From positions 905 through 64,904 of IMG/VR virus record IMGVR_UViG_3300009768_000008: 64,000 bases of DNA, one strand, 5' to 3'. Positions 8,498 through 47,005 of this stretch are shown piece by piece. Below the pieces are notes generated by a model, which was not told the DNA's origin, searched no databases, and worked only from the letters and a program-made list of their open reading frames with translations. How positions within the stretch are numbered: the stretch's first letter is position 1; each line of letters starts with the position of its first letter. Source of the stretch: a virus. Made by a program: the position numbers and the translations under genes.

Positions 8498-8533
8498 CAA
8501 AAAGAAAAGGGGAAGGTATAGACCTCCCCCTTT
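8498..8533 (-). terminator. intrinsic terminator after the 453-aa structural gene
   Basis: minus strand reads AAGGGGGAGG-tctata-CCTTCCCCTT followed by TTCTTTTTGG. Confidence 0.6.
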
Positions 8534-15512: not shown

Positions 15513-18266
15513 TTAACTCTTTTTGGATTTAGGCTTCTCTCCTACTACCGGATTCTGAAGTTTTGTCTTTTCTATCTGAAGTCTTTTATCAGCAATCTCT
15601 TTATTGGCTTGAATCTTCTCACGTTCCAGGTTCATCTTTTGCTGGTTACTCATGTTCTTGTTAACCTCCTGCTCACGCTTGAAGTTCATCTGCTCACGAT
15701 AGTTATCCTGCTCCTGGATCTTTTCCAGGGCATCCTGATAATCACTCTGAGCGTTCTGGTTAAGATCTACAGCAGCCCCGTAGCCGGCAGAACGGATCTC
15801 AGCTACAGTGATGTCCTTCTTGATCATCTTATCGTCACGATTAGCCATAAACTCGCGTTCTGCAGCCTTATCACGTTCCTGAGAAGCAATCAGTTGCTGC
15901 TGCAGTTCTTGTTGATGCTGCTGATCAGCCAGTCTGATGGCGTTAGTCTTCTCTTCAGAAGTCTTCAGGGCATGGTTGATCTCAGCCAGAGAGTCAGCCT
16001 TGATGATGTTACCCAGATCATAGATGGAAGCACCGGCTGTATTGTTGTTCAGAGCCAGCTGTTTAAGCTGCTCCATGATGTTCCGGGAGTTTACCCTGGT
16101 AGTACAGAAGATGTTCAGATCGCGTAAAAGAAGACTTGTACCATTAATCTGGAAGTTGACCTTCTCATCGGACTGAGTAATGTACTGAAGACGGATAGAG
16201 GGCTTCTTAGAATGGTAGTACTGGGCCAGGTCGGTCCTCATCTGGTGAACCCGCGGCATTAGGTAGTCAGAGTGCTGAGTAAACAGGTGTTCTGTCTGAG
16301 CATAGGAGGCTGATTGAGCCATCTCAAGACCTTTTGCAGAATCCTGTACTCCAAGCTGCTGACCCATCCGCTGGGGGTTCAGACCAATGACCTCAAAGGC
16401 CTGGTTCTTAAAGTAGGTAGCCAGGTTAATACGGGAAAGCAGACGGTTTGTCTGTTCCAGGTTTAGTACCTGGTAGTGTTGGAAGGAAAGGGCGTTCTCA
16501 GTGTTTGTAATCGTACTGTCCAGGGGCAGCATCTGGAAGTTCTTCATAGCCACATAGGCTTTGGCCAGATTATTTTTACCCCAGTCTTCTCCCATAGAGT
16601 GACGAGGTAAAGCGTTCTGGTCCAAAAGAATAACCGTACCAAGCTCATCTACAAGGATGTCAGCTATCTGGTTATTCACTATGTTGTAGCCTATCTGGTA
16701 TGGCTTCATCAGATCGACCAGTGAAATACTGCGGGTGTTACGATCACCGAATACAGCACCTTCCACTGGGAGTTTGCAGCCATAGAGAGTACTATCTCCT
16801 TTAAACTGGAAAGGAATAGGGCCCGGTTTACCACCGTTCAGTCCGAGATAGATCGGATTGATACCACCAGGGTTATTCATACCCCAGAAACTTGGCCTAT
16901 TAGGACCAATCTTGATACCACCATAGGTCTCGTTAATCCAGATCCAGTCAATATGTTCACCAAAGATCAGGTTGTCCTTACTCTTCTGTTTGTATAATGC
17001 AGTGTTATAGAGAGGTTTATCTGTAACTTTGTAGGTCTCATCTACAATATCCTGAATAAGTTCTCCTTCTTCAGTGATCTTGGTAAGGTGTCCTACCTTC
17101 CGCTGACTTTTCCAGTAAGCAGTGGTTACCCTTAAAAGGTGCTGCTTTCCGAAGTCCTGAGTATCTTCTGAGTCGGCCAGGATCCACTCTACAATGTCCC
17201 CGGTACCAAACTTAGTATCATAGAGACTCATGAACTGACGGTAAGCCAGGGAGGGCATCTGAGTATTCCACTCATGAGATCTTGTAGGATCATAGTAGGT
17301 ACCATCATTCTGATATCCTTGTACAGCATAGCCGGCAGATCTTACCGGATAGATAGTCTCGATGGCTTCCAGTTGCTCCTGGGTCATCATCCAGCCATAC
17401 TTGTCAATGATATCAGCAGCACTGGCCAGGTCAATCTTACCTACCCAGGAACCCTGGGAAATATACCTGGTATCCGGTGATTTATGGTAGAAAGTCAGTA
17501 GAGGATTCCATAACTCAATTTCATAGTCATCCTCCATCATCCGGAAGTGCCAGAACTCACGGTCGGTGATCAACATGTCACGGAAACCGCGTTCTTCCAG
17601 CTCATCCATACGGAAACGTTCCTCATCAACGCGTTTTTGGTGAGCAGCCCACTCTTCGATCATACTACGATAATCCTTCTTGAAAAAACCCTCAATCTCC
17701 GGGAGCTTCTTGAGGTTATCTGGTTGCATGGCGGTTTGAGCCTCCTCACTGTCCAGTTCAAGGCCTTGGGACATCATCTGAAGCGTCATCTTACGTTGAG
17801 CGTTTTGAAGTAAAACCTGCTCGATCTGAGCACGTTTCTCTTCAAGCATCTCGTTGTAAGATAGGTCATCTACCGCCCGGAACATGATCTTTGAGGTTCT
17901 CTGGGCAAACTCGTTACACAGAACGTTGATTACGTTCGGAATGATCGGATAAAACTTGAGCTCTAACGCTGATGAGTCCTCTTTGGTAAGAGTTTCGATT
18001 AGGTCAGCCATCTCGTTGTCTTCCTCAACTATGTAGTCAGATTTATCAATAATCCCTTTGGCCAGCTTGTAGTTCTTCATGAGTCTGCGAGCATTACGTC
18101 TCAGCATCTTCATACCCTGCCACTCGAGCCAGTCAAGGTTCCATGCACGCCACTCATCATCCTTTTCCTTTGCAGGAAGGAACTGGATAGGTTGGGTCAG
18201 AGTACCCATCTTGTTGTACTCAACCTTCTTTCCGGCTTTTAGGTCAAGGGCGTTATATATTTGCAT
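15513..18266 (-). CDS. putative portal protein (917 aa) with a charged C-terminal coiled-coil extension
   Basis: Large ORF adjacent to the terminase; C-terminal KEQE-rich tail. Confidence 0.5.
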   Translation of the reverse strand: MQIYNALDLKAGKKVEYNKMGTLTQPIQFLPAKEKDDEWRAWNLDWLEWQGMKMLRRNARRLMKNYKLAKGIIDKSDYIVEEDNEMADLIETLTKEDSSALELKFYPIIPNVINVLCNEFAQRTSKIMFRAVDDLSYNEMLEEKRAQIEQVLLQNAQRKMTLQMMSQGLELDSEEAQTAMQPDNLKKLPEIEGFFKKDYRSMIEEWAAHQKRVDEERFRMDELEERGFRDMLITDREFWHFRMMEDDYEIELWNPLLTFYHKSPDTRYISQGSWVGKIDLASAADIIDKYGWMMTQEQLEAIETIYPVRSAGYAVQGYQNDGTYYDPTRSHEWNTQMPSLAYRQFMSLYDTKFGTGDIVEWILADSEDTQDFGKQHLLRVTTAYWKSQRKVGHLTKITEEGELIQDIVDETYKVTDKPLYNTALYKQKSKDNLIFGEHIDWIWINETYGGIKIGPNRPSFWGMNNPGGINPIYLGLNGGKPGPIPFQFKGDSTLYGCKLPVEGAVFGDRNTRSISLVDLMKPYQIGYNIVNNQIADILVDELGTVILLDQNALPRHSMGEDWGKNNLAKAYVAMKNFQMLPLDSTITNTENALSFQHYQVLNLEQTNRLLSRINLATYFKNQAFEVIGLNPQRMGQQLGVQDSAKGLEMAQSASYAQTEHLFTQHSDYLMPRVHQMRTDLAQYYHSKKPSIRLQYITQSDEKVNFQINGTSLLLRDLNIFCTTRVNSRNIMEQLKQLALNNNTAGASIYDLGNIIKADSLAEINHALKTSEEKTNAIRLADQQHQQELQQQLIASQERDKAAEREFMANRDDKMIKKDITVAEIRSAGYGAAVDLNQNAQSDYQDALEKIQEQDNYREQMNFKREQEVNKNMSNQQKMNLEREKIQANKEIADKRLQIEKTKLQNPVVGEKPKSKKS

Positions 18267-18271
18267 GGTTC

Positions 18272-18577
18272 TTAGTTATTTGTATACAGAGAGGGTGTAG
18301 GATGATCAGACCCCTGAGCTGTTAGTGAGCTTAAAGCTTGAACATTGTTACTATACAGAATACCACTATCTCTGGGCTGCCAGGGAGCAGTTGTAGGAGT
18401 ATTCCACGGATGATTAGGAGCAGCCGTACCTGGTATATTGATCGGCAGAAGAGGTTTGATACCCAGTGATTCTTCTTCTTTTAACAGCAGAATAGCTTCT
18501 TCCAGAGTAAGGGAGCTTTCTTTGATCAAACGAGAAAGTATAGCTACTTTCTGGGAATGTAATGTACTGTTTTCCAT
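18272..18577 (-). CDS. hypothetical protein (101 aa)
   Basis: ORF track; stop overlaps the portal start region. Confidence 0.35.
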   Translation of the reverse strand: MENSTLHSQKVAILSRLIKESSLTLEEAILLLKEEESLGIKPLLPINIPGTAAPNHPWNTPTTAPWQPRDSGILYSNNVQALSSLTAQGSDHPTPSLYTNN

Positions 18578-20775
18578 TATCTTAGGTTTTTAAAGGGTGT
18601 TCTGGGTGGTGTCATACTTTTGGAACCCCCTTCTGATGACCCAATATGTCTAAAAGGTCTCCAATTTAATTTACTGATTTTTTGGGAGTTCTCCAACTTT
18701 TGTTCCACTCGTTCTACACGTTTGGTGTATCCACGGTTGGCTTGTTGAACCTTGGCAAAGGCTATGAGTGCACAGAAAGATACCAGACGGTCCACGTTGA
18801 GTCCATCATAGTAAGCTTTCATCTCTTTGAGCAGCATTGGATCCGGAATACGTTCCACGCCGTAGGTTGTCCTTACAATGGTCCCGTCTTCCTTTGTTTC
18901 GTGGTCCAGTTCTTCCTTGGTAAACTCGATACCGTAGCTTAGGATGTTACCCTTGAATAGGGTCCCTACGTTTTTCCAACCATATTCCTGGAAGACGTTT
19001 CGGTTGGCTCCCAGGTCCTTCAGAAACAGAATCATGTCTTTTGGCACCAGGTACCGCTGTTTCTTTTTAGAGATCATGTACTGGATAAATAAGGCCACGT
19101 TATTCTCCACAACTGTCCAAGCATTATACCACTCGATCATCAACTCTAGGCGTTCATGAGTTTTGTTGATGTCATCAAAACGTCCACACCAGCTAGCCAC
19201 GATCTTATCCCGCTCTATGGTGTTCTCTACTTTACCATCACCATAGTCCTTAATGACTTCAACCGGGTTTTTATAGATGTAGATCGAGCATAGGGAATCT
19301 GAGGTTGTAGTCTTACCTTCTCCTACCGGGTCGACAGACGCGTAGTACATTCCAAAAGGAGGGTCTTTAACCGGTCGTTCGTAGATACAGATGACCCCTT
19401 CTTTGTTTTCCATCTTCTTTGGTACAGGAAACTCCATGATCGGAGTCTTCCTGGAGGGAGAGTCAATGATCTTCCCTTCAGCATTTCTGGAGAGCTCTAG
19501 GTATTCAACAGGGTACTCTTTATCAGCGATCCGTCGTTCTTGTTGTGCAACTAGGTGTGCAGGGAATACGCTTACTTTACGCGTATCAAACGCTTCCTCG
19601 ATGTTTCTGGGGTGCTGAGAAAGCTCTAGCTGGTAAGCTTGAGGGGTAAGATCTCGTTTGGCCTTCTCAAAGTACTTATCCAGGGCCTCTAAGGCTTTTT
19701 CTACCAGAGAGTTTCCAAATTCATCCATGTATGGAGGCATGGACCACTGTTCTGGTATAAAGAGCCCGGTTACTCTGATTGTACCATTCTTGTCTACAAG
19801 ATTGGACTCTACACCATAGAACCCGTTTTCTTCCGGATGCATAATGTATTCTTTCATGGGTTCACACTGATCCAGGTCACCCACGGAACCAGCAGCTATG
19901 AACTGACCGGTAATGATATGACCAGACTTCAGGGCCGGCTTGATATAACCATAGGTCAGGTCCATCTTGGGTGCGATACCGCCCTCTTCATGGAAGAAAT
20001 AAGTTACCGGTCCACCAACGCCATTTGTAGGATCCTTTTCAAAAGAGTAACCAGCAATGGTACTCTTAAGACCCTTATAGGTATCACGGCCATTTATACG
20101 TACTTTGATCTGCTGGTTCCAGGCAAATACCTTATCAGGTTCGGCCGGTCGGTACCAGGCAGTATGCTCGTTCAAGAAGTTTTTGTATTCATCCAGGAAC
20201 TTCCAGGAGCCTTTCTCGTTTATATAGTCTTTCAGTGAGGCACCGATCTTACAGATACTACCGGATTCAAACCAGTAAGTATTGATCAGTTTTGCCATAT
20301 GAAAGTAAGAAGAAGCTATCTGACGCTTCTTTAGGATGATAGCATGTTTGTAGTTCAGCTCAGCCAGATGTTCATACAAGGCCATATGATACTGGGCATC
20401 ACGAACCTTGGCAAAGTCAAACTTCTTTTCTTCCTTGTCATAGATAGGAAGAAAGTTGAGCCACATGTAGTAGTCCCTGGTTATATACCAGGTCTTTGAC
20501 TTGTTCTTTACAATGATGCCGTTTCTGCACTTATTCTTCTGGTCATCCCAGTAGGTCATGAAGTCTTTGCTCTTCAGTGGAGCATTGCAGTAGTAACCCT
20601 GGGTCTGAAACTTACGAGCCTCAGCATTAAAGATCCTGGTTACTTCATCAAACTCATACTTGCCTGGTTCTTTGAATAGAAAGAACAAGAAATCCCGGAA
20701 CTCCTCCCGGGTATTAAAAGTGGTTACGAACCAGTTACCGTTTTCGTAGGTAGGGACTTGTTTAAAGGGGGTCAT
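18577..20775 (-). CDS. terL: putative terminase large subunit (732 aa)
   Basis: Motif GMYYASVDPVGEGKTTTSDSLCSIYIY resembles the first catalytic-Asp strand of the terminase RNase-H-like nuclease domain. Size and position upstream of the portal also fit. Confidence 0.55.
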   Translation of the reverse strand: MTPFKQVPTYENGNWFVTTFNTREEFRDFLFFLFKEPGKYEFDEVTRIFNAEARKFQTQGYYCNAPLKSKDFMTYWDDQKNKCRNGIIVKNKSKTWYITRDYYMWLNFLPIYDKEEKKFDFAKVRDAQYHMALYEHLAELNYKHAIILKKRQIASSYFHMAKLINTYWFESGSICKIGASLKDYINEKGSWKFLDEYKNFLNEHTAWYRPAEPDKVFAWNQQIKVRINGRDTYKGLKSTIAGYSFEKDPTNGVGGPVTYFFHEEGGIAPKMDLTYGYIKPALKSGHIITGQFIAAGSVGDLDQCEPMKEYIMHPEENGFYGVESNLVDKNGTIRVTGLFIPEQWSMPPYMDEFGNSLVEKALEALDKYFEKAKRDLTPQAYQLELSQHPRNIEEAFDTRKVSVFPAHLVAQQERRIADKEYPVEYLELSRNAEGKIIDSPSRKTPIMEFPVPKKMENKEGVICIYERPVKDPPFGMYYASVDPVGEGKTTTSDSLCSIYIYKNPVEVIKDYGDGKVENTIERDKIVASWCGRFDDINKTHERLELMIEWYNAWTVVENNVALFIQYMISKKKQRYLVPKDMILFLKDLGANRNVFQEYGWKNVGTLFKGNILSYGIEFTKEELDHETKEDGTIVRTTYGVERIPDPMLLKEMKAYYDGLNVDRLVSFCALIAFAKVQQANRGYTKRVERVEQKLENSQKISKLNWRPFRHIGSSEGGSKSMTPPRTPFKNLR

Positions 20776-25730: not shown

Positions 25731-26117
25731 CTAGGCAGAAAGCTGTTCCTTTTCTAATAAGACAATGATGTCTTCTGGGAGATTGTGCTTCTTATGATGC
25801 TTGTAGAAATAGTTCACCAGGGCTTTGTGGTAGACCTCCTGGGCATGCGTGAGAGGTTTGGTATCCTCATGAAGTTCATAGGTAACTTTTACCGGTATGG
25901 TCTGGTACTGCTTTCGTACAACCAGCTCATATTCTTCCAGATCTTTTAAGGTCTCACTGAGGACTTTGACAGATATATCCGGGAGCTTGCGTTTGAGTTC
26001 AGAGAATCTCATGGGGCCCTGGCGTAGGTGCCAGATAACTACTGCTCTCCACTTTTTGCCCCACATCTCGGAGGCTAGGTTCATCAGGTAAGCTGCTAAC
26101 ATATGATTACAACACAA
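25731..26117 (-). CDS. HxlR-family winged-helix transcriptional regulator (128 aa)
   Basis: WRAVVIWHLRQGPMRFSELKRKLPDISVKVLSETLKDLEEYELVVRKQYQTIPVKVTYEL matches the HxlR signature (GP-RF-EL...IS-K-L...L..L...LV.R..Y...P..V.Y.L). Confidence 0.6.
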   Translation of the reverse strand: MCCNHMLAAYLMNLASEMWGKKWRAVVIWHLRQGPMRFSELKRKLPDISVKVLSETLKDLEEYELVVRKQYQTIPVKVTYELHEDTKPLTHAQEVYHKALVNYFYKHHKKHNLPEDIIVLLEKEQLSA

Positions 26118-26245
26118 TAAACAAAACTCAGCAGTAGTAGTTGTCTTTAGAGTGGACTATTTCTCACTGAGGTAAGTAGATTACTAAGGGGTAATACTTA
26201 GTAAAATTAATCAGTGTCAGCTTATATACAACTGATTCTTATCAG

Positions 26246-26317
26246 TTTCCTCCCCTGGGTACGATCCAGGAACTGCAGGGCCAAAACCTGCCGTGATACC
26301 AGTTTCACCAAAAGGAA
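26246..26317 (-). tRNA. tRNA-Gln (anticodon UUG)
   Basis: Hand-folded cloverleaf. Acceptor UUCCUUU/GGAGGAA; D GUGA-AACUGGUA-UCAC; anticodon stem GCAGG/CCUGC with loop UUUUGGC; T CCUGG-AUCGUAC-CCAGG. Confidence 0.6.
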
Positions 26318-26323
26318 ATAGTG

Positions 26324-26395
26324 GGTGTAAGGACGGTACCGACCCGTCTTCCCCAGGTCCACAACCTGGTGCATCACCTTAATGCTTCAAACACC
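26324..26395 (-). tRNA. tRNA-His (anticodon GUG) with G-1:C73
   Basis: D GCAU/AUGC; anticodon CCAGG-UUGUGGA-CCUGG; T GACGG-GUCGGUA-CCGUC; extra 5' G pairs with C73; the acceptor stem has two U.U mismatches. Confidence 0.5.
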
Positions 26396-26400
26396 ATAAG

Positions 26401-26472
26401 AGCCTTCTACCGGAACCGACCCGGTAAGTCCTGTTTACAAGACAGGCAGTTTTCCAGTTAGCTTAAGAAGGC
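26401..26472 (-). tRNA. tRNA-Thr (anticodon UGU)
   Basis: acceptor GCCUUCU/AGAAGGC perfect; anticodon CCUGU-CUUGUAA-ACAGG; T ACCGG-GUCGGUU-CCGGU. Confidence 0.55.
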
Positions 26473-26477
26473 CTGTG

Positions 26478-26550
26478 TGGTACAGAGTGGTTACGATCCA
26501 CTTCCCCCGGTTTTTCAGACCGGTGCTTCTACCAAGTTAGCTTCTGCACC
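26478..26550 (-). tRNA. tRNA-Phe (anticodon GAA)
   Basis: acceptor GGUGCAG/CUGUACC; anticodon CCGGU-CUGAAAA-ACCGG; T AGUGG-AUCGUAA-CCACU. Confidence 0.6.
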
Positions 26551-26625
26551 AAGTAGGACTTTGTCAAAGCCGGCCACTCCTGCACAAAGAGGAGACCAGC
26601 TTGATCAGGTGTCCTGAAACCTTTG

Positions 26626-26698
26626 AGGTGGGTGGGAAACTCGAAGCCCCGTATGACTGTTTTGCGGACAGTTGCCTTACCATCTTGGCGAACCCACC
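26626..26698 (-). tRNA. tRNA-Cys (anticodon GCA)
   Basis: acceptor GGUGGGU/ACCCACC perfect; anticodon ACUGU-CCGCAAA-ACAGU (C33 unusual); T-loop UUCGAGU. Confidence 0.5.
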
Positions 26699-26704
26699 AT
26701 GTTG

Positions 26705-26776
26705 TCTAGCTGATCTGGATCGAACAGACGTAATCTTGCTCCCAAAGCAAGTGCCTTACCGCTAGGCTACAGCTAG
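26705..26776 (-). tRNA. tRNA-Pro (anticodon UGG)
   Basis: acceptor CUAGCUG/CAGCUAG; D GCCU-AGCGGUA-AGGC; anticodon CUUGC-UUUGGGA-GCAAG; T GUCUG-UUCGAUC-CAGAU. Confidence 0.65.
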
Positions 26777-26830
26777 AAAAAGAAAACCCCCAAACCGTTT
26801 TACCAGTCTGGGGGTTAGTATTTTGATTTT
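26774..26830. terminator. bidirectional terminator-like hairpin AACCCCC-(17 nt)-GGGGGTT flanked by U tracts on both strands
   Basis: read directly; abuts the 5' end of tRNA-Pro. Confidence 0.5.
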
Positions 26831-26944
26831 GTACTTCTTAACTCGTTGCTATGATCACTGTACATACACCAACACAACTACCCCCGCAGACCGGACAAGG
26901 TTGCGTAAACTGGGTAAACTGTGTATGGGTAGTAATCTTCTTCA

Positions 26945-26986
26945 TCTACAATACAAAGATACTACTTTTTGTAGAACTACCAAAAT
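26945..26986 (-). promoter_or_regulatory. Bacteroidetes-type sigma-A promoter (minus strand): -33 TTTG at 26983-26986 and -7 TATCTTTG at 26952-26959, 19-nt spacer containing GTTCTAC
   Basis: matches the TTTG / TAnnTTTG consensus with canonical spacing; the same extended motif recurs at six or more sites. Confidence 0.5.
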
Positions 26987-26993
26987 CTTTTTG

Positions 26994-27066
26994 CACGGGC
27001 CCAGGGAAACGATCCCTGTCCATCCGAGGTTTTGGAGACCTGGTGCATACCATTATGCTGGCCCAT
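26994..27066 (-). tRNA. tRNA-Trp (anticodon CCA), reduced D-loop
   Basis: acceptor AUGGGCC/GGCCCGU; anticodon CAGGU-CUCCAAA-ACCUC (4 bp); T CAGGG-AUCGUUU-CCCUG; D-loop only 4 nt. Confidence 0.45.
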
Positions 27067-27071
27067 GTATG

Positions 27072-27155
27072 TGGGAAGTGAGTGAGTCGAACACCCCGAG
27101 TCCGTAGACAGCTGGTTTACAATCAGCCCCGCTACCACTTACGGTATAACTTCCC
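27072..27155 (-). tRNA. tRNA-Tyr (anticodon GUA), long variable arm
   Basis: acceptor GGGAAGU/ACUUCCC perfect; anticodon GCUGA-UUGUAAA-CCAGC; variable hairpin; T GGGUG-UUCGACU-CACUC. Confidence 0.55.
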
Positions 27156-27235
27156 CTATTTCGCATATCCAGTCAGTAGTCTTTCCGTCAAAAGCTATCA
27201 ACCAGAGTATGCCGTTCATATTAACGATGTACATG

Positions 27236-27321
27236 CAGAGAGCAGAGTAGTCGAAACCCACCCCGGTTAAGGAGCCCACTGTTTAGCAAACAGGTCTGAC
27301 CACCTAGTCAGTTTACTCTCT
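27236..27321 (-). tRNA. tRNA-Ser (anticodon GCU), long variable arm
   Basis: acceptor AGAGAGU/GCUCUCU; 3-bp D-stem; anticodon CCUGU-UUGCUAA-ACAGU; T-loop UUCGACU. Confidence 0.5.
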
Positions 27322-27326
27322 AGATG

Positions 27327-27418
27327 CGGAAGGCAGAGGAACCGACCCCCATGCCCGTGTAAGGGGCAGCCTAGTTTTCAAGACTAGTCGCCACTCCAAT
27401 GTAGCTGCATTACCTTCC
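27327..27418 (-). tRNA. tRNA-Ser (anticodon UGA), long variable arm
   Basis: acceptor GGAAGGU/GCCUUCC; anticodon CUAGU-CUUGAAA-ACUAG; variable hairpin UGCCC-CUUACAC-GGGCA; atypical T-arm. Confidence 0.5.
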
Positions 27419-27424
27419 ATGTAG

Positions 27425-27510
27425 TACCGGTGGAGGGGGATGATCCCACACGATCCTTTCGGATCACAAGATTTTAAGTCTTGCGTGTCTGCCTATTTCA
27501 CCACACCGGC
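27425..27510 (-). tRNA. tRNA-Leu (anticodon UAA), long variable arm
   Basis: acceptor GCCGGUG/CACCGGU; anticodon CAAGA-CUUAAAA-UCUUG; variable hairpin GAUCC-GAAA-GGAUC. Confidence 0.55.
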
Positions 27511-27591
27511 AGTTGTCTGGACTCTCACCATAGCAGTCAGGGATTTCAGGTCCCCAGGTGTGCATTCAATTCGTCCCACCTTCTGACATCG

Positions 27592-27674
27592 TACCTCTGA
27601 CAGGCCTCGAACCTGCACCCGTTTCCGGACTAGATCCTAAGTCTAGCGTGTCTCCCAAGTTTCACCACAGAGGT
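27592..27674 (-). tRNA. tRNA-Leu (anticodon UAG), long variable arm
   Basis: acceptor ACCUCUG/CAGAGGU; anticodon CUAGA-CUUAGGA-UCUAG; T GCAGG-UUCGAGG-CCUGU. Confidence 0.55.
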
Positions 27675-27685
27675 ATAAAAACCAA

Positions 27686-27715
27686 AATCCCGACCAGGAA
27701 AACCTAATCGGGATT
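27686..27715. terminator. hairpin AATCCCGA-(14 nt)-TCGGGATT followed by a U tract (plus strand); also U-flanked on the minus strand
   Basis: read directly. Confidence 0.4.
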
Positions 27716-27941
27716 GGAAACTTTTTCAGTAACTACATACCTCACCCGATTGGTTTATGCAACCAATACAGACTGAGTGAGGATAGAGTAAACTGCTTCA
27801 TAAAAATTTGGTGGATGGTCACCCCACTTGTTTTAATCTAAACAAGAAATCATCGGTCGGTTACGTTAACTTCTCAGCTTGAACGCCTGTCGTGTGACCT
27901 TTCAGCTTTCACGCCTGTTAAGAGGCTTTACCGACCATCAC

Positions 27942-27990
27942 AATACAAATATACAACTCTTTTGGAGTTCTACAAAATATTTTTGTGGAG
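27942..27990 (-). promoter_or_regulatory. Bacteroidetes-type promoter (minus): -33 TTTG inside ATTTTGTAGAAC, 19-nt spacer, -7 TATATTTG. Also a near-palindrome TCTACAAAAtatTTTTGTGGAG.
   Basis: read on the minus strand: ctccacaaaaatatTTTGtagaactccaaaagagttgTATATTTGtattg. Confidence 0.55.
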
Positions 27991-28061
27991 ACTCTGGAAC
28001 TTGAATCCAGCTGATATCCTGCTTGCAAGGCAGGTGTCCACTCCTGGCAGACCCAGTCCCC
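27986..28061 (-). tRNA. tRNA-Ala (anticodon UGC)
   Basis: acceptor GGGGACU/AGUCUCC (G.U); anticodon CCUGC-CUUGCAA-GCAGG; T CUGGA-UUCAAGU-UCCAG; 7-nt variable region is unusual. Confidence 0.45.
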
Positions 28062-28067
28062 ATGCTG

Positions 28068-28139
28068 TACTCTCGGGTGGTAACGATCCACCTACCTTCT
28101 CCGTATCAGGGAGCTACTCTACCATTGAGCTACGAGAGT
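28068..28139 (-). tRNA. tRNA-Ile (anticodon GAU)
   Basis: acceptor ACUCUCG/CGAGAGU perfect; D GCUC-AAUGGUA-GAGU; loop CUGAUAC; T GGUGG-AUCGUUA-CCACC. Confidence 0.6.
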
Positions 28140-28144
28140 ATAAG

Positions 28145-28217
28145 TTGATCCGGGTGGGTACGATCCACCGACCTTGACGTTATGAGCGTCCTGCTACTAC
28201 CACTGAGCTACGGATCA
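28145..28217 (-). tRNA. tRNA-Met (anticodon CAU), copy 1
   Basis: acceptor UGAUCCG/CGGAUCA; D-arm GUAGCUCAGUGGUAG; loop CUCAUAA; T GGUGG-AUCGUAC-CCACC. Confidence 0.55.
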
Positions 28218-28222
28218 GTATG

Positions 28223-28296
28223 CGGTCCGTACCGGGATCAAACCGGTCATCTCTGGCGTGACAAGCCAGCGTCTTCATCGTGCAGACCCACGGACC
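28223..28296 (-). tRNA. tRNA-Asp (anticodon GUC)
   Basis: acceptor GGUCCGU/ACGGACC perfect; anticodon CUGGC-UUGUCAC-GCCAG perfect; T ACCGG-UUUGAUC-CCGGU. Confidence 0.6.
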
Positions 28297-28302
28297 AAAT
28301 AG

Positions 28303-28376
28303 TACCCCCACCGGAGATCGAATCCGGTTCTTCACCGTGAAAGGGTGGCGTCCTGTACCTTCTAGACGATAGGGGC
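28303..28376 (-). tRNA. tRNA-Glu (anticodon UUC)
   Basis: acceptor GCCCCUA/UGGGGGU; D CGUC/GACG; loop CUUUCAC; T CCGGA-UUCGAUC-UCCGG (canonical). Confidence 0.55.
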
Positions 28377-28456
28377 AAATTGGAGGCTTAGGACTCCATC
28401 ATCCTCCTTGAGATCCCGGCGTCCTTCTACTTTTTATAGTACGGATCTCTTTTACG

Positions 28457-28528
28457 AGCAGCATCTCGGGGTCGATCCGAGTTCTCCGGTTTGGAAGACC
28501 GGCACATCAGCCCTAATGCTTATGCTGC
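28457..28528 (-). tRNA. tRNA-Gly (anticodon UCC)
   Basis: acceptor GCAGCAU/AUGCUGC perfect; anticodon CCGGU-CUUCCAA-ACCGG perfect; T CUCGG-AUCGACC-CCGAG. Confidence 0.6.
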
Positions 28529-28639
28529 ATGAAAGAACAGAGCTCCAGGGGAATCTCACCCGTCTGTCCGGAACAGACCTCACTGCCTTTTACTATGTAC
28601 GGTATTTACTCGTACACAACAGCTACCTGAAGATGATCT

Positions 28640-28710
28640 TGGTTGCGGGGCCGGGATTTGAACCCGGGAAACACGGCTTATGAGACCGGTCGGCCACCTG
28701 GCTCCCCACA
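28640..28710 (-). tRNA. tRNA-Met/Ile2 (anticodon CAU), copy 2, CCA encoded, reduced D-arm
   Basis: T CCGGG-UUCAAAU-CCCGG; acceptor UGUGGGG/CCCCGCA plus ACCA; loop CUCAUAA; the 8-48 region is about 6 nt short. Confidence 0.45.
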
Positions 28711-28719
28711 ATAAAACTG

Positions 28720-28793
28720 CGGACTCTCCGGGGAACGATCCTGGAACCTTCACCTTAACAGGGTGCCGCTCTACCAGTTGAGCTAAGAGTCCG
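28720..28793 (-). tRNA. tRNA-Asn (anticodon GUU)
   Basis: acceptor GGACUCU/AGAGUCC perfect; D GCUC-AACUGGUA-GAGC; loop CUGUUAA; T-loop AUCGUUC. Confidence 0.55.
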
Positions 28794-28865
28794 TATACTT
28801 AGAAGGATTCCAACCTTCACTTTCAGTTTAGAAGACTGACGTGCTAAGCATTACACCATAAGTAC
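28794..28865 (-). tRNA. tRNA-Arg (anticodon UCU)
   Basis: acceptor GUACUUA/UAAGUAU; anticodon UCAGU-CUUCUAA-ACUGA perfect; T GAAGG-UUGGAAU-CCUUC. Confidence 0.55.
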
Positions 28866-28870
28866 ATATC

Positions 28871-28944
28871 TGGAAGACCCGGAGGTAGTCGAAACCCCAT
28901 CATCACGTTCGTAGCGTGATATCCTTCCATTGAACGACGGGTCC
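28871..28944 (-). tRNA. tRNA-Arg (anticodon ACG), CCA encoded
   Basis: acceptor GGACCCG/CGGGUCU; D GUUC-AAUGGAA-GGAU; anticodon UCACG-CUACGAA-CGUGA; T GGGGU-UUCGACU-ACCUC; 3' UCCA. Confidence 0.55.
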
Positions 28945-28996
28945 TTGTTAAGACCGTCTTCGGTAATATGTACTGTAGTGTGTCATGTCTTCTGTC

Positions 28997-29073
28997 TGGT
29001 AGCTCCTATCCGGGTCGAACGGATGCATTCTCGGTATGTAACACCGAAGCTCTACCACCTGAGCTAAGGAGCT
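28997..29073 (-). tRNA. tRNA-Val (anticodon UAC), CCA encoded
   Basis: acceptor AGCUCCU/AGGAGCU perfect; D GCUC-AGGUGGUA-GAGC; anticodon UCGGU-GUUACAU-ACCGA; T AUCCG-UUCGACC-CGGAU; 3' ACCA. Confidence 0.6.
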
Positions 29074-29136
29074 ATTTGAAGCTCATTATTGAGCTTGAAT
29101 GAGCTGAATATTGAGCTTAATCGGCTCATATATCTT

Positions 29137-29208
29137 GTTCCCCCGTCCGGTAACGATCCGGACCCCACGGATTAAAAGTCCGTTGCCTACACCTGTTTGC
29201 TACGAGGG
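29137..29208 (-). tRNA. tRNA-Lys (anticodon UUU)
   Basis: acceptor UCCCUCG/CGGGGGA (G.U); anticodon ACGGA-CUUUUAA-UCCGU perfect; T UCCGG-AUCGUUA-CCGGA; weak D-stem. Confidence 0.5.
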
Positions 29209-29244
29209 AAAATAAAAAACCCCGGTAGCTGGTGCTCCGGGGTT
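29208..29244 (-). terminator. intrinsic terminator (minus): AACCCCGG-(11 nt)-CCGGGGTT plus TTTTTTATTTT, abutting the 5' end of the tRNA array
   Basis: read directly. Confidence 0.6.
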
Positions 29245-29396
29245 CTTGTTATCTTAAACTTACTTCTAGTTATCCTAGATCAGTACAGACAAATGAACCC
29301 ACGGAGCGTACCTTCTCATCCGCTCTGCGTTCCATAATGCCTATATTGACTGTAAGTAACATTTGCTGTGTAATAGTTTTATGTAGATCTCTGACC

Positions 29397-29440
29397 TACA
29401 ATACAAATATACGTTAGTTCTACAACATGACCAAATTTAT
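29397..29440 (-). promoter_or_regulatory. Bacteroidetes-type promoter (minus): -33 TTTG, a 20-nt spacer containing GTAGAAC, -7 TATATTTG
   Basis: minus strand reads aaTTTGgtcatgttgtagaactaacgTATATTTGtattg. Confidence 0.5.
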
Positions 29441-29760
29441 TTCATCGTTTTTCCTGAGAAAAGTTTGTCGAGTTCTCGTACAGCAATGTTGTACGCTATC
29501 TGTTGAGCTTTCATTTGATCTGTCATTGAGTTATCCAGATCTGGTTTCAGTTCCTCTTCGTTTATAGGATCTATACCTACAATATAAGGTGGAGCTTCAG
29601 ACTTATTCCGGATAGTCTTCTTTACCTGCTTACGACGGTTATAGTGTTTCCGAGGAAGTGGAATCTTCCAACTCCACTCATCTTGTAACCCGATCACTAT
29701 GCTCTTCTTACCTTTCCCAGGTCCGTCAAACGCCGGGTTGTGTTCTACTTCTATCTTCAT
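29437..29760 (-). CDS. hypothetical protein (107 aa)
   Basis: ORF track. Confidence 0.4.
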   Translation of the reverse strand: MKIEVEHNPAFDGPGKGKKSIVIGLQDEWSWKIPLPRKHYNRRKQVKKTIRNKSEAPPYIVGIDPINEEELKPDLDNSMTDQMKAQQIAYNIAVRELDKLFSGKTMK

Positions 29761-29935: not shown

Positions 29936-30129
29936 TTCTGACCCTTTTTGGTATTGGAGCCCGGGTAAGCCTCGTTGAGTACTATCATCTTCTTAAGCTC
30001 ATCTCTGTGTACCCACTGTACCTTACCCACCGCGGCATAGTACTTCCAGGCCATCTCATCCTGGGGGAGATCACCATTCTTATACAGCTCGACCACACAA
30101 GCCAGGTCTGTATAGACTACTTCACTCAT
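29932..30129 (-). CDS. hypothetical protein (65 aa)
   Basis: ORF track; ATGA-type overlaps. Confidence 0.4.
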   Translation of the reverse strand: MSEVVYTDLACVVELYKNGDLPQDEMAWKYYAAVGKVQWVHRDELKKMIVLNEAYPGSNTKKGQK

Positions 30130-30523
30130 TGGGATTAAGTTTTAAAAGTCGATCCGGATCAAATCCCCTGGTGGCAAATGCCTTGAACGTCTCAGCGTAC
30201 TTGGGGGTCTCAGTTCTCTGAGGCATACCGTAGGTCTCCCCAGCCTGTACACAGAGAGCTGCTATCTTTCGTAGAAACTCCATGGTATACTGGTGTGGTA
30301 CCGATCCCTTATACCATGCCTCTAATGCTTTGTTCAGGTTATACTGAATTGCAGTGATGGTATCTCCAACATGCAGGTCCTGGATCATATCCGGCCTGGT
30401 CGGGTCAGCTATCATCTTTTCCTGGAAGTCACGCTCGGTGTCAATCACCTTATAGACTTCTTCTCTGGTCATAACGGTCGGTTTTTGGTAGACCGGTTCA
30501 AGATCCTGATAGGTTGTATTCAT
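30122..30523 (-). CDS. hypothetical protein (133 aa); first gene of the leftward operon at the divergent control region
   Basis: ORF track. Confidence 0.45.
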   Translation of the reverse strand: MNTTYQDLEPVYQKPTVMTREEVYKVIDTERDFQEKMIADPTRPDMIQDLHVGDTITAIQYNLNKALEAWYKGSVPHQYTMEFLRKIAALCVQAGETYGMPQRTETPKYAETFKAFATRGFDPDRLLKLNPNE

Positions 30524-30759
30524 AACTAAGCTGTTTTAAAAGTGAGGGGGCTTTTACACCCCCTTGGGCTAAGGCAGGTCTGTCAAGTTTCATGAGTTCT
30601 CTACAAATATAAGAAACCAGACTCCAGTTCTCCAAATATTTCTACAAGTTTCCTTGAGCTCATTTTTGAGCCCTAGAACATAGTAATAAGGAATACATGG
30701 TATGTTATAGAGCTCAGATTTGAGCTCAAGGAAAGTTGGACCCAGTTCTCCAAGATACC

Positions 30760-38629: not shown

Positions 38630-38718
38630 GTTACCAGTCCAAACTTTTTTTGTTTACACTTTGTAGAACTAAGAAAAACGTCTACATTTGTTCTACATCT
38701 TTAAAGTTTACATGTTAC

Positions 38719-39003
38719 ATGAAAAAGAATCCCCGGTTGTCCGGTGGGTTTGGAATGGTATCCAAGACAGTAATGTCAGATCCAGAACTCTCCATGAGAG
38801 AGAAGGGTCTGTATGCTTACCTGGCTACATATGCTGATAGTGTAACAAACGAGCTGACAGTAAGTGTAAACAGGATGTGTGCTGAGCTTGGTATTACCCA
38901 GGCCACCGTTAAAAGATCTTTGAGTTTACTTGAGAAGAAAGGTATCATAACCAGAGTTGACAAACGTGCATGCACTGTAAGAACTACAGTGCTTTTAAAA
39001 TAA
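38719..39003 (+). CDS. winged-helix DNA-binding protein (HTH_36 / replication-initiator-like), 94 aa from the Met at 38719
   Basis: LYAYLATYAD...LTVSVNRMCAELGITQATVKRSLSLLEKKGII; preceded by operator-like TTGTAGAAC...GTTCTACAT. Confidence 0.45.
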   Translation: MKKNPRLSGGFGMVSKTVMSDPELSMREKGLYAYLATYADSVTNELTVSVNRMCAELGITQATVKRSLSLLEKKGIITRVDKRACTVRTTVLLK

Positions 39004-46884: not shown

Positions 46885-47005
46885 GGGCTTATTAGTTCAG
46901 TGGCAGAACACCGGGTCCGATGAGGCGGCTTTTATTAAGGTTATTGCAACCCCAAAAGAAAACCGAAACCCCGGGAGGTCACCAGTTCAAATCTGGTATA
47001 AGCCC
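46885..47005 (+). tRNA. tRNA-like gene with a roughly 50-nt insertion in the anticodon loop. Acceptor and D arm (GGGCUUAU-UA-GUUC..GAAC) and T arm plus acceptor (ACCAG-UUCAAAU-CUGGU-AUAAGCC-C) are intact.
   Basis: acceptor 7/7 pairs plus G-1:C73; anticodon-stem halves CCGGG ... CCCGG separated by 53 nt. Confidence 0.4.

Follow-up and report, generated by a model that had tools for sequence, protein, structure and literature searches.

A block of 24 tRNA genes, all on the minus strand, is located at 26245-29209 of the analysed window, a 64-kb (64,000 nt) stretch of IMG/VR record IMGVR_UViG_3300009768_000008 (positions 905 to 64,904). The block belongs to a crAss-like phage, as genes for TerL, portal and a Crass_capsid major capsid protein are present on the 133 kb contig. 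The tRNAs carry 23 different anticodons and cover all 20 amino acids, with CCA being encoded in three of them. The genes are arranged in three units of 12, 6 and 6 tRNAs, each of which is headed by a Bacteroidota-type promoter, a short leader ORF and a terminator hairpin (Table 1).

tRNA gene content

Seventeen tRNA genes were detected with ARAGORN at default settings and 19 with the Rfam tRNA model at or above its gathering score, 15 of which were found by both programs. Trp and Ala were found by ARAGORN only, while Glu, Cys, His and the second CAU tRNA were added by Rfam. The three remaining tRNAs (two Ser, Tyr), all of which possess a long variable arm, appeared only at relaxed thresholds and matched only the related tRNA-Sec model, below its threshold. 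ARAGORN at 90 % threshold recovered 23 of 24, whereas tRNA-Ser (UGA) rests on the Rfam match and a fold by hand and represents the weakest call. The only other tRNA-model match in the window is one odd tRNA-like gene at 46886-47005, so the cluster is far beyond chance. Spacers of 0-8 nt separate 14 neighbouring pairs, seven pairs have spacers of 52-111 nt, and two gaps of 216 and 310 nt hold leaders. The observation of the first-pass annotation, a minus-strand block of 24 tRNA genes decoding all 20 amino acids, is thus confirmed: all 24 listed cloverleafs were recovered within 1 nt of its limits, with matching anticodon assignments and the same three CCA-encoding genes.

Identity elements read from the sequences fit real, chargeable tRNAs: G-1/C73 in His, G3-U70 in Ala, C1-G72/A73 in Pro, U73 in Cys and Gly, G73 plus a long arm in both Ser, and A73 plus a long arm in Leu and Tyr. 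It could alternatively be considered that many of the 24 are not working tRNAs but decoys or decaying copies, e.g., baits for host tRNA-cutting defence enzymes, in which case the set would not really decode all 20 amino acids. In line with this, 13 of 24 lack the near-universal T54/A58 pair, individual tRNAs deviate in the anticodon loop (Cys), acceptor stem (His) or D arm (second CAU tRNA), and seven fall below the default score of ARAGORN. However, synthetase identity elements are intact throughout, and positions 54 and 58 change together (T-A, A-T, G-G, A-A only), while T55, C56 and purine 57 are kept (tRNA-Arg (UCU) was read with G56), indicating selection for a folded T-loop. Moreover, exactly one gene per codon box without duplicates is not what decay would give, and this possibility is regarded as very unlikely.

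The set is non-redundant: seven four-codon boxes are served by U34 tRNAs and Arg CGN by ACG, while the two-codon boxes are served by G34 or U34 tRNAs. The interpretation in the first-pass annotation, i.e., a near-autonomous decoding set unusual for a phage of this apparent size and suggestive of strong codon-usage mismatch with the host or takeover of translation, is only partly supported. Assignment to a phage and coverage of all 20 amino acids hold, but an unusual set for the genome size is not supported, since phage T5 (121.75 kb) has about 24-25 tRNAs for all 20 amino acids on one strand, crAss001 (102.7 kb) has a 23-tRNA block in the same place upstream of TerL, and Cellulophaga phage phi38:1 (72.5 kb) has 22 or more. 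Codon mismatch is, judged from phage codon use alone, not favoured: the phage prefers GCT, GGT, TCT, CCT and CGT, while the tRNAs supplied in four-codon boxes are U34 types. The repertoire therefore looks built for completeness rather than tuned to the preferred codons. The promoter, leader and terminator modules dividing the block had been missed in the first-pass annotation.

Table 1 Features of the tRNA block (all on the minus strand; window coordinates)
Coordinates	Feature	Detection and scores	Remarks
29404..29435	Promoter of unit 1	Pattern search	TTTG-N20-TATATTTG, Bacteroidota sigma-A type
29270..29362	Leader ORF 1, MLLTVNIGIMERRADEKVRSVGSFVCTDLG	P(run)=1.9e-3; only run in the six-frame translation of the window containing all 10 amino acids	Run VNIGIMERRADEKVR (29350-29306) uses only, and all of, the 10 amino acids of the 12 tRNAs that follow; both Arg boxes (CGC, AGA), ATT, ATA and ATG present
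29295..29308	Antiterminator segment of unit 1 (CGCTCCGTGGGTTC)	-18.6 kcal/mol; 0 of 500 shuffles as strong	Codons 19-23, right after the run; pairs with the 5' arm of the terminator and alternatively with 29333-29320 inside the run (1:2 pairing, -14.0 kcal/mol)
29210..29244	Terminator hairpin of unit 1 plus U tract	-18.2 kcal/mol	Hairpin 29244-29218; ends directly before tRNA-Lys
29137..29209	tRNA-Lys (UUU)	ARAGORN default; Rfam 38 bits	T-loop ATCGTTA
28997..29073	tRNA-Val (UAC)	ARAGORN default; Rfam 48.8 bits	CCA encoded
28871..28944	tRNA-Arg (ACG)	ARAGORN default; Rfam 49.5 bits	CCA encoded
28793..28865	tRNA-Arg (UCU)	ARAGORN default; Rfam 65.1 bits	T-loop TTGGAAT (G56)
28719..28792	tRNA-Asn (GUU)	ARAGORN default; Rfam 53.9 bits	
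28640..28710	Second CAU tRNA	Rfam 30.2 bits; ARAGORN only at 90 % threshold	Initiator-derived; shortened D arm; CCA encoded; 3' half nearly identical to E. coli metZ tRNA-fMet; full-length version with the same TGTGGGG/CCCCGCA acceptor in relatives L001 and L007
28456..28528	tRNA-Gly (UCC)	ARAGORN default; Rfam 44.8 bits	
28302..28376	tRNA-Glu (UUC)	Rfam 48.6 bits; ARAGORN at 90 % threshold	
28222..28296	tRNA-Asp (GUC)	ARAGORN default; Rfam 43.6 bits	
28144..28217	First CAU tRNA	ARAGORN default; Rfam 49.3 bits	Not initiator-like; either elongator Met or Ile (AUA) after lysidine modification
28067..28139	tRNA-Ile (GAU)	ARAGORN default; Rfam 54.5 bits	
27985..28061	tRNA-Ala (UGC)	ARAGORN default only; no Rfam match even at E<=10	G3-U70
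27946..27976	Promoter of unit 2	Pattern search	TTTG-N19-TATATTTG
27742..27801	Leader ORF 2, MKQFTLSSLSLYWLHKPIG	P(run)=6e-6; joint longest in the window and the only one of the three longest containing all 4 amino acids	Run LSSLSLYWL (27786-27760), codons CTA TCC TCA CTC AGT CTG TAT TGG TTG; at least one codon for each of the six tRNAs that follow (6 of 6 addressed)
27744..27754	Antiterminator segment of unit 2 (ACCAATCGGGT)	-12.1 kcal/mol; 32 of 500 shuffles (6 %) as strong	Overlaps the end of the leader ORF; pairs alternatively with 27773-27761 in the run
27677..27715	Terminator hairpin of unit 2 plus U tract	-19.6 kcal/mol	Hairpin 27715-27686, 13 pairs
27591..27674	tRNA-Leu (UAG)	ARAGORN default; Rfam 46.8 bits	
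27424..27510	tRNA-Leu (UAA)	ARAGORN default; Rfam 44.5 bits	T-loop ATCATCC
27328..27418	tRNA-Ser (UGA)	Rfam tRNA-Sec model only (32 bits, E=0.0012); fold by hand	Long variable arm, G73; ortholog at the same place in relatives L160 and L053
27235..27321	tRNA-Ser (GCU)	ARAGORN at 90 % threshold; Rfam tRNA-Sec model 31.8 bits	Long variable arm, G73
27072..27155	tRNA-Tyr (GUA)	ARAGORN at 90 % threshold; Rfam tRNA-Sec model 21.3 bits	Long variable arm, A73; perfect 7-bp acceptor stem (GGGAAGT/ACTTCCC, 27155-27072) after alignment by hand
26993..27066	tRNA-Trp (CCA)	ARAGORN default only; no Rfam match	G73
26954..26984	Promoter of unit 3	Pattern search	TTTG-N19-TATCTTTG; leader ATG 8 nt after it, so the mRNA is probably leaderless
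26838..26945	Leader ORF 3, MKKITTHTQFTQFTQPCPVCGGSCVGVCTVIIATS	P(run)=9e-9; longest such run in the window, 14 against 9 for the next	Run TTHTQFTQFTQPCP (26933-26892) uses only, and all of, Thr, His, Gln, Phe, Pro and Cys
26881..26894	Antiterminator segment of unit 3 (CCGGTCTGCGGGGG)	-19.5 kcal/mol; 0 of 500 shuffles as strong	Codons 18-22, right after the run
26777..26816	Terminator hairpin of unit 3 plus U tract	-22.6 kcal/mol	Hairpin 26816-26785, 13 pairs
26704..26776	tRNA-Pro (UGG)	ARAGORN default; Rfam 61.9 bits	C1-G72 and A73
26625..26698	tRNA-Cys (GCA)	Rfam 45.2 bits; ARAGORN at 90 % threshold	U73; C33 in place of U33
26477..26550	tRNA-Phe (GAA)	ARAGORN default; Rfam 49.9 bits	
26400..26472	tRNA-Thr (UGU)	ARAGORN default; Rfam 44.2 bits	T-loop GTCGGTT
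26323..26395	tRNA-His (GUG)	Rfam 33 bits; ARAGORN at 90 % threshold	Encoded G-1 and C73; two U-U mismatches in the acceptor stem
26245..26317	tRNA-Gln (UUG)	ARAGORN default; Rfam 43.2 bits	

Leader ORFs, terminators and alternative pairings

The promoter pattern matches six times in the window against 0.87 expected, with three of the six matches heading the tRNA units. Each leader ORF holds an uninterrupted run of codons for exactly the amino acids of the tRNAs that follow, whereby split boxes are addressed separately (CGC and AGA; CTN and TTG; TCN and AGT). For each of the three amino-acid sets, no run in the six-frame translation of the window is longer than that in the leader preceding the matching tRNAs. 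Overall enrichment in leader 1 is modest (21 of 30 residues, P=0.12), its signal residing in the uninterrupted run that covers the whole set.

In every unit, the best upstream partner of the terminator 5' arm lies in the leader ORF directly after the run, as in trp-type attenuators, and these pairings appear in the best fold once the 3' arm is left out. Pairing is weak, however, in unit 2 and in relative L160 (12 % of shuffles as strong).

The leader ORFs might instead represent independent small genes, either for micropeptides or small RNAs, each with its own promoter and terminator, such that the tRNAs would be made only by leaky read-through or from unrecognised promoters and the composition match would reflect some other link, e.g., peptides acting on the translation apparatus. 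This would agree with the complete promoter-ORF-terminator layout of each leader, with the Cys-rich hydrophobic C-terminal half of leader 3, which could have a function of its own, and with an extra structured 5' element in unit 2. However, no promoter fits in the 2-5 nt between each terminator and the first tRNA, so tRNA expression must pass through the terminator, and the alternative pairing placed right after each run in 8 of 8 units (those of other phages, described below, included) would not be explained by it. This alternative is, therefore, considered unlikely.

Occurrence in other phages

Since the idea of leader-tRNA matching was formed on the leaders of the window itself, only other phages count as independent tests. 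Two environmental relatives show the same design: relative L160/L053 has the leader ...YYLSLSWLSL... before the same six tRNAs, and relative L035 has ...C..CFWQQ... before Trp-Cys-Gln. The cultured, unrelated Cellulophaga phage phi38:1 possesses three units that divide the 20 amino acids differently, and its leaders follow that division, with the runs IATDIRTKGVK, YNNFSWYSNCSFSSYN (P=3.6e-10) and LLHQEPLEQLRLP (P=1.3e-6), each followed by an antiterminator segment and a terminator. Leader B of phi38:1 contains Trp, Cys and Tyr, and leader A contains Ala, from which the presence of the respective tRNAs, none of which is annotated in the GenBank record, was predicted; all four were found when looked for. 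Calle_1 keeps the runs of phi38:1 while the flanking residues vary, which likewise speaks against independent small genes.

An ordinary, constitutively expressed tRNA cluster matching phage codon use to a host with different usage, with incidental small ORFs and hairpins, would be in accord with the fact that large tRNA clusters with interspersed small ORFs, promoters and terminators are common in phages, e.g., T5 and crAss001. Neither of these two shows clear matching leaders, and the design was also absent from several other tRNA arrays, so it is not general. Nevertheless, the position of the runs, which are the window-wide maxima for their amino-acid sets, exactly in front of the matching tRNAs, the recurrence in phi38:1 with a different division of amino acids, and the disagreement between supplied anticodons and preferred T-ending codons render this reading unlikely as well.

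Proposed attenuation of the tRNA operons

The 24 tRNA genes are best explained as a complete, non-redundant decoding set of a crAss-like phage infecting a Bacteroidota host, arranged as three operons that appear to be controlled by trp-type, ribosome-mediated attenuators (probability approximately 0.75). tRNA sets of comparable size are already known from other phages, whereas no published description was found of demand-driven, leader-peptide attenuation of phage tRNA operons. The genes, promoters, ORFs and hairpins, the alternative pairings, the match between leaders and tRNAs and its recurrence in other phages are evident from the sequences; translation of the leaders, termination at the hairpins and the direction of the response are inferred from these.

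In this view, each operon would be transcribed by the host RNA polymerase from a strong consensus promoter, starting with the leader ORF. If the charged tRNAs addressed by the run are plentiful, the ribosome would pass through the run and over the next segment, allowing the terminator hairpin to form and transcription to stop a few bases before the first tRNA. If any of those tRNAs is scarce, the ribosome would stall in the run, leaving the segment just after it free to pair with the 5' arm of the terminator, and the polymerase would read on into the tRNA genes. Stalls at the last codons of a run would cover part of the antiterminator segment, so not every codon may be sensed equally, and coupling of transcription and translation has, to our knowledge, not been established for Bacteroidota. 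Scarcity of tRNAs could arise from heavy phage demand, host shut-off or a host tRNA-cutting defence, and the newly made tRNAs would relieve the stall, closing a feedback loop. The modules thus point to supply on demand rather than constitutive takeover of translation, which would mean that the phage makes its own tRNAs only when they run short.

The tRNA genes and their repertoire

At default settings, ARAGORN detected 17 tRNA genes in the block, all of which locate on the minus strand, while the Rfam tRNA model (RF00005) identified 19 in the same stretch at or above its gathering score of 29 bits. Fifteen genes were found by both programs, those for tRNATrp and tRNAAla by ARAGORN only, and those for tRNAGlu, tRNACys, tRNAHis (33 bits) and a second CAU tRNA (30.2 bits) by Rfam only. 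The three remaining candidates possess long variable arms and matched only the clan relative tRNA-Sec, below its threshold (Ser-UGA, 32 bits; Ser-GCU, 31.8 bits; Tyr, 21.3 bits). Lowering the ARAGORN threshold to 90 % recovered 23 of the 24 genes; Ser-UGA rests on the Rfam match and a fold made by hand, and has an ortholog at the same position in the array of a relative. The 24 genes and their anticodons reported by the first-pass annotation are thereby confirmed. CCA is encoded in Arg-ACG, Val and the second CAU tRNA.

The genes fit the cloverleaf with a 7-nt anticodon loop, U33 and a purine at position 37 expected of tRNAs: all 23 tRNAs called by ARAGORN have 7-nt anticodon loops, and U33 is present in all except tRNACys, the anticodon loop of which reads CCGCAAA with C33 instead of the near-universal U33. 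Identity elements read from the sequences fit chargeable bacterial-type tRNAs: G-1/C73 in His, G3-U70 in Ala, C1-G72/A73 in Pro, U73 in Cys and Gly, G73 in Ser (with a long arm), Asp, Asn and Trp, and A73 plus a long arm in Leu and Tyr; charging as such is inferred. In the T-loops, T55 and a purine at position 57 are present in all 24 tRNAs, and C56 is kept except in Asp (T) and Arg-UCU (G). The near-universal T54/A58 pair, however, occurs in only 11 tRNAs, the other 13 having A/T in 9 (Gln, Phe, Trp, Leu-UAA, Ile, first CAU, Asn, Lys and one more by our count), G/G in 3 (His, Thr, Ser-UGA) and A/A in Gly, the Ser-UGA entry deriving from the hand fold. Orthologs in the relative L160 are canonical, as are all 23 tRNAs detected by ARAGORN in the tRNA region of coliphage T5, whereas an unrelated 215-kb phage contig (L157) has A54/U58 in 3 of 7 tRNAs, and tRNATrp of the relative L035 also has A/T.

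The block belongs to a phage genome and not to host DNA, since genes for TerL, portal and major capsid protein lie 5–13 kb away on the same strand, and the same sequence occurs in two independent assemblies, a 133,468-bp ENA contig and an 85-kb JGI contig, with 100 % identity over the tRNA block. TerL is about 25 % identical to that of crAss-like phages in the phage collection, and the capsid protein carries the Crass_capsid domain. A Bacteroidota host is indicated by a protein with a type-9-secretion sorting domain and by promoters of the TTTG-N19-21-TAnnTTTG type. No tRNA-processing, CCA-adding, synthetase or tRNA-repair domains were found among 78 proteins of the window.

The 24 genes carry 23 different anticodons without redundancy and cover all 20 amino acids: one U34 tRNA for each of seven four-codon boxes, ACG for Arg CGN, G34 or U34 tRNAs for the two-codon boxes, CCA for Trp, and two CAU tRNAs. 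With only two CAU tRNAs, one of three functions (initiator, elongator Met or Ile-AUA) is not covered at the codon level. The second CAU tRNA is initiator-derived, its 3' half being almost identical to E. coli metZ, and relatives carry a full-length version with the same acceptor stem; for the first CAU tRNA, alignment did not discriminate between Met and Ile2. The phage itself prefers GCT, GGT, TCT, CCT and CGT, and the set therefore looks designed to read everything, not to boost the favoured codons. The interpretation offered by the first-pass annotation, which regarded the set as unusual for the apparent phage size and as suggestive of a codon-usage mismatch with the host or of a takeover of translation, is only partly supported. 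The set is not unusual for a phage of this size: T5 (121.75 kb) has an equivalent single-strand set, Bacteroides phage crAss001 (102.7 kb) a block of 23 tRNAs, zeta crAss-like phages have up to 26 tRNAs (PMC12386605), and Cellulophaga phage phi38:1 (72.5 kb) has at least 22.

Within its own family, however, the block is exceptional. Searches with TerL, portal and flanking proteins in IMG/VR and metagenomes yielded about 240 related loci, most of which carry 0–1 tRNA near TerL. Two relatives (L053/L161 and L160) carry only the middle six-gene module, in the same order, and no diverged copy of units 1 and 3 was found. At the DNA level, a search for close matches to the block among 50,697 phage records returned nothing, and a search for distant ones only generic tRNA-level similarity. 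Many family members harbour just upstream of TerL a long tRNA-like gene called Asp(GTC) by ARAGORN, with a Leu-like D arm, the anticodon loop TTGTCTC and a 20–70-nt insertion in the variable region, often followed by a single Cys, Met or Leu tRNA. Elsewhere in the window, a tRNA-like gene (Rfam tRNA, 46.2 bits) has normal acceptor, D and T arms, but about 47 extra nt in the anticodon arm and no clear anticodon; it may have a G-1/C73 arrangement, and a similar 115-nt element (42.9 bits) occurs in a relative (L156).

Layout of the block and composition of the leaders

The promoter pattern TTTG-N19-21-TAnnTTTG matches six times in the window against 0.87 expected. Three of these matches lie in the block and divide it into units of 12, 6 and 6 tRNAs. 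Each promoter is followed by a short ORF and then by a GC-rich hairpin with a U tract, a predicted intrinsic terminator ending 2–5 nt before the first tRNA. No promoter fits in that gap, so tRNA transcription must pass through the hairpin. The same consensus promoter heads a tmRNA-like gene, which matches Rfam RF00023 at 60.7 bits (gathering score 47), but spans 659 nt against a 374-position model and hence holds large insertions; ARAGORN detects it only at a relaxed threshold, with an unusually long tag, AMTKSERVAEGEAILASIFVDEAVAA, closed by a stop. The other two exact matches each precede an ORF, and the one on the plus strand shares the extended TTTGTAGAACT motif with the promoters of unit 2 and of the tmRNA-like gene, while the unit 1 promoter has only TGTAGAACT and the unit 3 promoter lacks it.

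The leader of unit 1, MLLTVNIGIMERRADEKVRSVGSFVCTDLG, precedes Lys, Val, Arg-ACG, Arg-UCU, Asn, CAU, Gly, Glu, Asp, CAU, Ile and Ala, and its 15-residue run contains all ten of those amino acids and nothing else, including both CGC and AGA as well as ATT, ATA and ATG. Because ATA, ATT and ATG stand in front of one GAU and two CAU tRNAs, one CAU tRNA may read AUA, in which case the set would read all 61 sense codons. The leader of unit 2, MKQFTLSSLSLYWLHKPIG, precedes Leu-UAG, Leu-UAA, Ser-UGA, Ser-GCU, Tyr and Trp; its run uses CTA, CTC, CTG, TTG, TCC, TCA, AGT, TAT and TGG, so each of the six tRNAs is addressed. The leader of unit 3, MKKITTHTQFTQFTQPCPVCGG..., precedes Pro, Cys, Phe, Thr, His and Gln. 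The run probabilities are 1.9e-3, 6e-6 and 9e-9, respectively. As a control, all six reading frames of the whole window were searched for runs drawn from each of the three amino-acid sets, and in no case was a run longer than that of the leader in front of the matching tRNAs. For set 1, two other runs tie at 15 residues, but the leader run is the only one to contain all ten amino acids; for set 2, two other runs tie at 9 residues, but only the leader run contains all four amino acids; for set 3, the leader run has 14 residues against 9 for the next longest.

In each unit, the best predicted upstream partner of the 5' arm of the terminator lies inside the leader ORF, in the few codons directly after the run (see table), although the pairing in unit 2 is only marginally better than shuffles. 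The same segment can also pair back into the run (-14.0, -8.8 and -11.6 kcal/mol for units 1 to 3). When the 3' arm was left out and the early part of the run masked, the antiterminator appeared in the minimum-energy fold of all three units, which corresponds to the four-segment logic of trp-type attenuators.

The 5' part of the unit 2 leader, upstream of the leader ORF, folds into a long closed stem (UGGUCGGU...ACCGACCG) containing an imperfect direct repeat, ACAGGCGTnnAAGCTGA, and a 6-codon mini-ORF (MVGKAS) starts at the predicted transcription start. Three of the seven 52–111-nt spacers inside the units fold better than shuffles, and the Lys-Val spacer carries repeated AGCTCA motifs; crAss001 also has several 70–80-nt spacers between its tRNAs.

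Coordinates of features in the window and in compared phage loci (handles beginning with L denote loci extracted for comparison)
Record	Position	Strand	Feature	Values
Window	18577-20775	same strand as portal and major capsid protein	TerL
Window	26245-29209	-	Block of 24 tRNA genes
Window	26625-26698	-	tRNACys with C33
Window	29308-29295		Unit 1 antiterminator segment	duplex -18.6 kcal/mol; 0 of 500 shuffles as strong; terminator hairpin -18.2 kcal/mol
Window	27754-27744		Unit 2 antiterminator segment	duplex -12.1 kcal/mol; 6 % of shuffles as strong; terminator hairpin -19.6 kcal/mol
Window	26894-26881		Unit 3 antiterminator segment	duplex -19.5 kcal/mol; 0 of 500 shuffles as strong; terminator hairpin -22.6 kcal/mol
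Window	27854-27937	-	Stem in 5' part of unit 2 leader
Window	29074-29136	-	Spacer Lys-Val	z = -3.1
Window	27155-27234	-	Spacer	z = -3.5
Window	26551-26624	-	Spacer	z = -2.0
Window	30604-30636	-	Consensus promoter, preceding ORF 30122-30523
Window	38660-38690	+	Consensus promoter, preceding ORF 38719-39003
Window	46886-47005	+	tRNA-like gene	46.2 bits
Window	47694-47725		Promoter of tmRNA-like gene
Window	47735-48393	+	tmRNA-like gene	60.7 bits
Window	about 48415-48450		Terminator of tmRNA-like gene
L156 (relative)	443-557	-	tRNA-like element	42.9 bits
L017 (relative)	7305-7395		Asp(GTC) tRNA-like gene
L026 (relative)	2189-2284		Asp(GTC) tRNA-like gene
L091 (relative)	about 6180-6400		Asp(GTC) tRNA-like gene
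L160 (relative)	6234-6329		Asp(GTC) tRNA-like gene
T5 (NC_005859)	28-41 kb		tRNA gene region
L158 (T5)	15618-15893	-	ORF T5.072
crAss001 (MH675552)	1683-5807		Block of 23 tRNAs
L262 (crAss001)	about 1640-1680		4-codon ORF
L260 (phi38:1, NC_021796)	about 2893-2970		tRNAAla
L260 (phi38:1, NC_021796)	4412-4494		tRNATyr
L260 (phi38:1, NC_021796)	4769-4841		tRNATrp
L260 (phi38:1, NC_021796)	4999-5071		tRNACys
L173 (IMGVR_UViG_3300028888_000066)	about 8480-8530	reverse	15-codon ORF overlapping tRNALys

Occurrence of the design in other phages

Independent support comes from two relatives and from an unrelated cultured phage. The relative L160/L053 has the same promoter-leader-terminator layout before the same six tRNAs as in unit 2; its leader, MKNNNTYYLSLSWLSLVDDRG, has diverged in sequence, but composition and six-tRNA coverage are kept. 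The relative L035 has MKVMISICNVFCFWQQSVSREYYV plus a terminator before Trp-Cys-Gln. The third case is the cultured Cellulophaga phage phi38:1, a member of an unrelated phage family (Pervagoviridae) with a marine flavobacterial host. It possesses three units, each with a repeated strong Bacteroidota-type promoter, a leader ORF starting MK or MN, a run listing the amino acids of the downstream tRNAs, an antiterminator segment and a terminator ahead of the tRNAs. Together these units cover 20 amino acids, but divide them differently, and the leaders share no sequence with those of the window: ...IATDIRTKGVK... precedes Ala, Lys, Ile, Gly, Met, Asp, Thr, Val, Arg-UCU and Ile-UAU; ...YNNFSWYSNCSFSSYN... 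precedes Tyr, Ser, Ser, Asn, Trp, Phe and Cys (16 of 16 residues in set, P=3.6e-10); and ...LLHQEPLEQLRLP... precedes Pro, Glu, Gln, His, Leu and Arg-ACG (13 of 13, P=1.3e-6). The three terminators of phi38:1 lie near 2940-2965, 4375-4405 and 5585-5620 of locus L260, record positions being locus positions + 32519. Phage Calle_1, likewise of the Pervagoviridae, keeps the runs while the flanking residues vary. Leader composition thus follows tRNA content across phages.

Trp and Cys in the second leader of phi38:1 initially appeared to be exceptions, since the GenBank record annotates no such tRNAs; a relaxed search then found tRNATyr, tRNATrp and tRNACys in that unit, and a tRNAAla was found by hand behind the first leader. 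In all, the record lacks tRNAs for Ala, Tyr, Trp, Cys, Pro, Glu, Met and Ile-UAU, and three of its annotated CDSs overlap tRNA genes, namely gp071 (over Pro and Glu), gp068 (over Trp) and gp069 (start overlaps Cys). The leaders are not annotated as such, but gp070 overlaps a leader ORF, which lies inside it.

A further candidate with a different layout occurs in contig L173, in which a 15-codon ORF, MKRKHRRFKHYILRV, with a Shine-Dalgarno-like AGGAAG overlaps the 5' end of tRNALys and precedes Lys, Arg, His and Phe tRNAs without a terminator; it could be a different implementation of the same idea. Pattern scans for the odd T-arms and for family tRNAs gave a few additional arrays, of which L164, L177, L178 and L039/L163 show no leaders of this kind.

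The T5 region resembles the present block in phage size and in having about 24–25 tRNAs on one strand for all 20 amino acids, mostly U34 in four-codon boxes and including an initiator and a CAU Ile tRNA, interspersed with promoters, terminators and small ORFs. It is, however, spread over 13 kb with homing endonucleases and stable RNAs, and its small ORFs show no clear matching runs followed by a terminator. One exception may be T5.072, a 91-aa ORF upstream of the Tyr-Glu-Trp-Phe tRNA group which contains WEGWEGEIEWLYFY, rich in exactly those four amino acids; as an annotated promoter lies between it and the tRNAs, this may be a coincidence. Phage crAss001 belongs to the same broad phage group, and its single-strand block likewise lies a few kb upstream of TerL on the strand of the structural genes, but it contains duplicates (two Lys, two Gly, two Ile), and no leader ORF with a matching run and no terminator stands in front of the tRNAs. 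Between a consensus-like promoter and its first tRNAs (Gln, Arg-UCU) lies a 4-codon ORF (ATG ATT AGA AGA TAA) with two AGA codons and no terminator.

Proposed leader-peptide attenuation of the tRNA units

From these data it is concluded that the block is a complete tRNA set, probably under leader-peptide attenuation. A ribosome stalling at any codon of the run, for want of the matching charged tRNA, would keep the terminator from forming and let the tRNA genes be transcribed, and the new tRNAs would then shut the system off. While the genes, motifs, pairings and statistics were established by the sequence analysis, translation of the leaders, termination at the hairpins and the direction of the response, with a read-through that rises when the sensed tRNA is scarce and depends on leader translation, are inferences.

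Leader-peptide attenuators of bacterial amino-acid operons and pheST (trp, his, leu, thr, ilv, pheA) share the short promoter-proximal ORF with a run of regulatory codons, the intrinsic terminator and the mutually exclusive 1:2, 2:3 and 3:4 pairings, a ribosome stalled at hungry codons favouring the antiterminator. Those attenuators, however, control biosynthetic or synthetase genes and sense one amino acid, or up to three in ilv and thr. Here, the regulated genes would be the tRNAs themselves, with one leader sampling 4 to 10 amino acids (6 to 12 tRNA species) at once by one or a few codons each, and the product would feed back directly on the sensor. T-box riboswitches follow the same logic of a leader sensing tRNA status and switching a terminator or antiterminator, but bind uncharged tRNA directly without translation, sense one tRNA and occur mainly in Firmicutes; no T-box match was found in 25800-29700, even at E<=10. 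No description of leader-peptide control of tRNA genes in phages or bacteria was found in the literature, older subscription papers not being covered. An attenuator before the E. coli tRNAPhe genes was considered as a precedent, but was discarded on the basis of pheV alone, which in K-12 has its promoter directly in front of the tRNA and no leader.

A more far-reaching reading, considered slightly more likely than not, is that the three leaders are multi-input sensors of tRNA shortage, which would make the block an inducible back-up translation kit, silent while host tRNAs suffice and switched on when any of the sampled tRNAs is depleted, for instance by a host anticodon nuclease or by host shut-off. 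This "census leader" design would represent an unrecognised class of regulator shared by unrelated phages of Bacteroidota, with contig L173 as a possible variant. The leader peptide would then also serve as a readable table of contents for the operon, which could be used to find unannotated tRNAs, as with the four revealed in phi38:1, and to assign ambiguous ones, such as the CAU tRNA that may read AUA as Ile. Such leaders could also serve as compact sensors of tRNA availability.

Classical attenuation would thereby be extended to genes for the tRNAs themselves and to the sensing of up to 12 tRNA species with one leader. Why phages carry tRNAs is debated, the proposals being codon matching, replacement of tRNAs lost during host shut-off, and escape from tRNA-cutting defences. 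A regulator turning phage tRNA genes on specifically when the corresponding tRNAs are scarce would be built-in evidence for the supply-on-shortage view and would render it directly testable, including in the cultured system of phi38:1 on Cellulophaga, for which infection RNA-seq already exists (PMC5335546).
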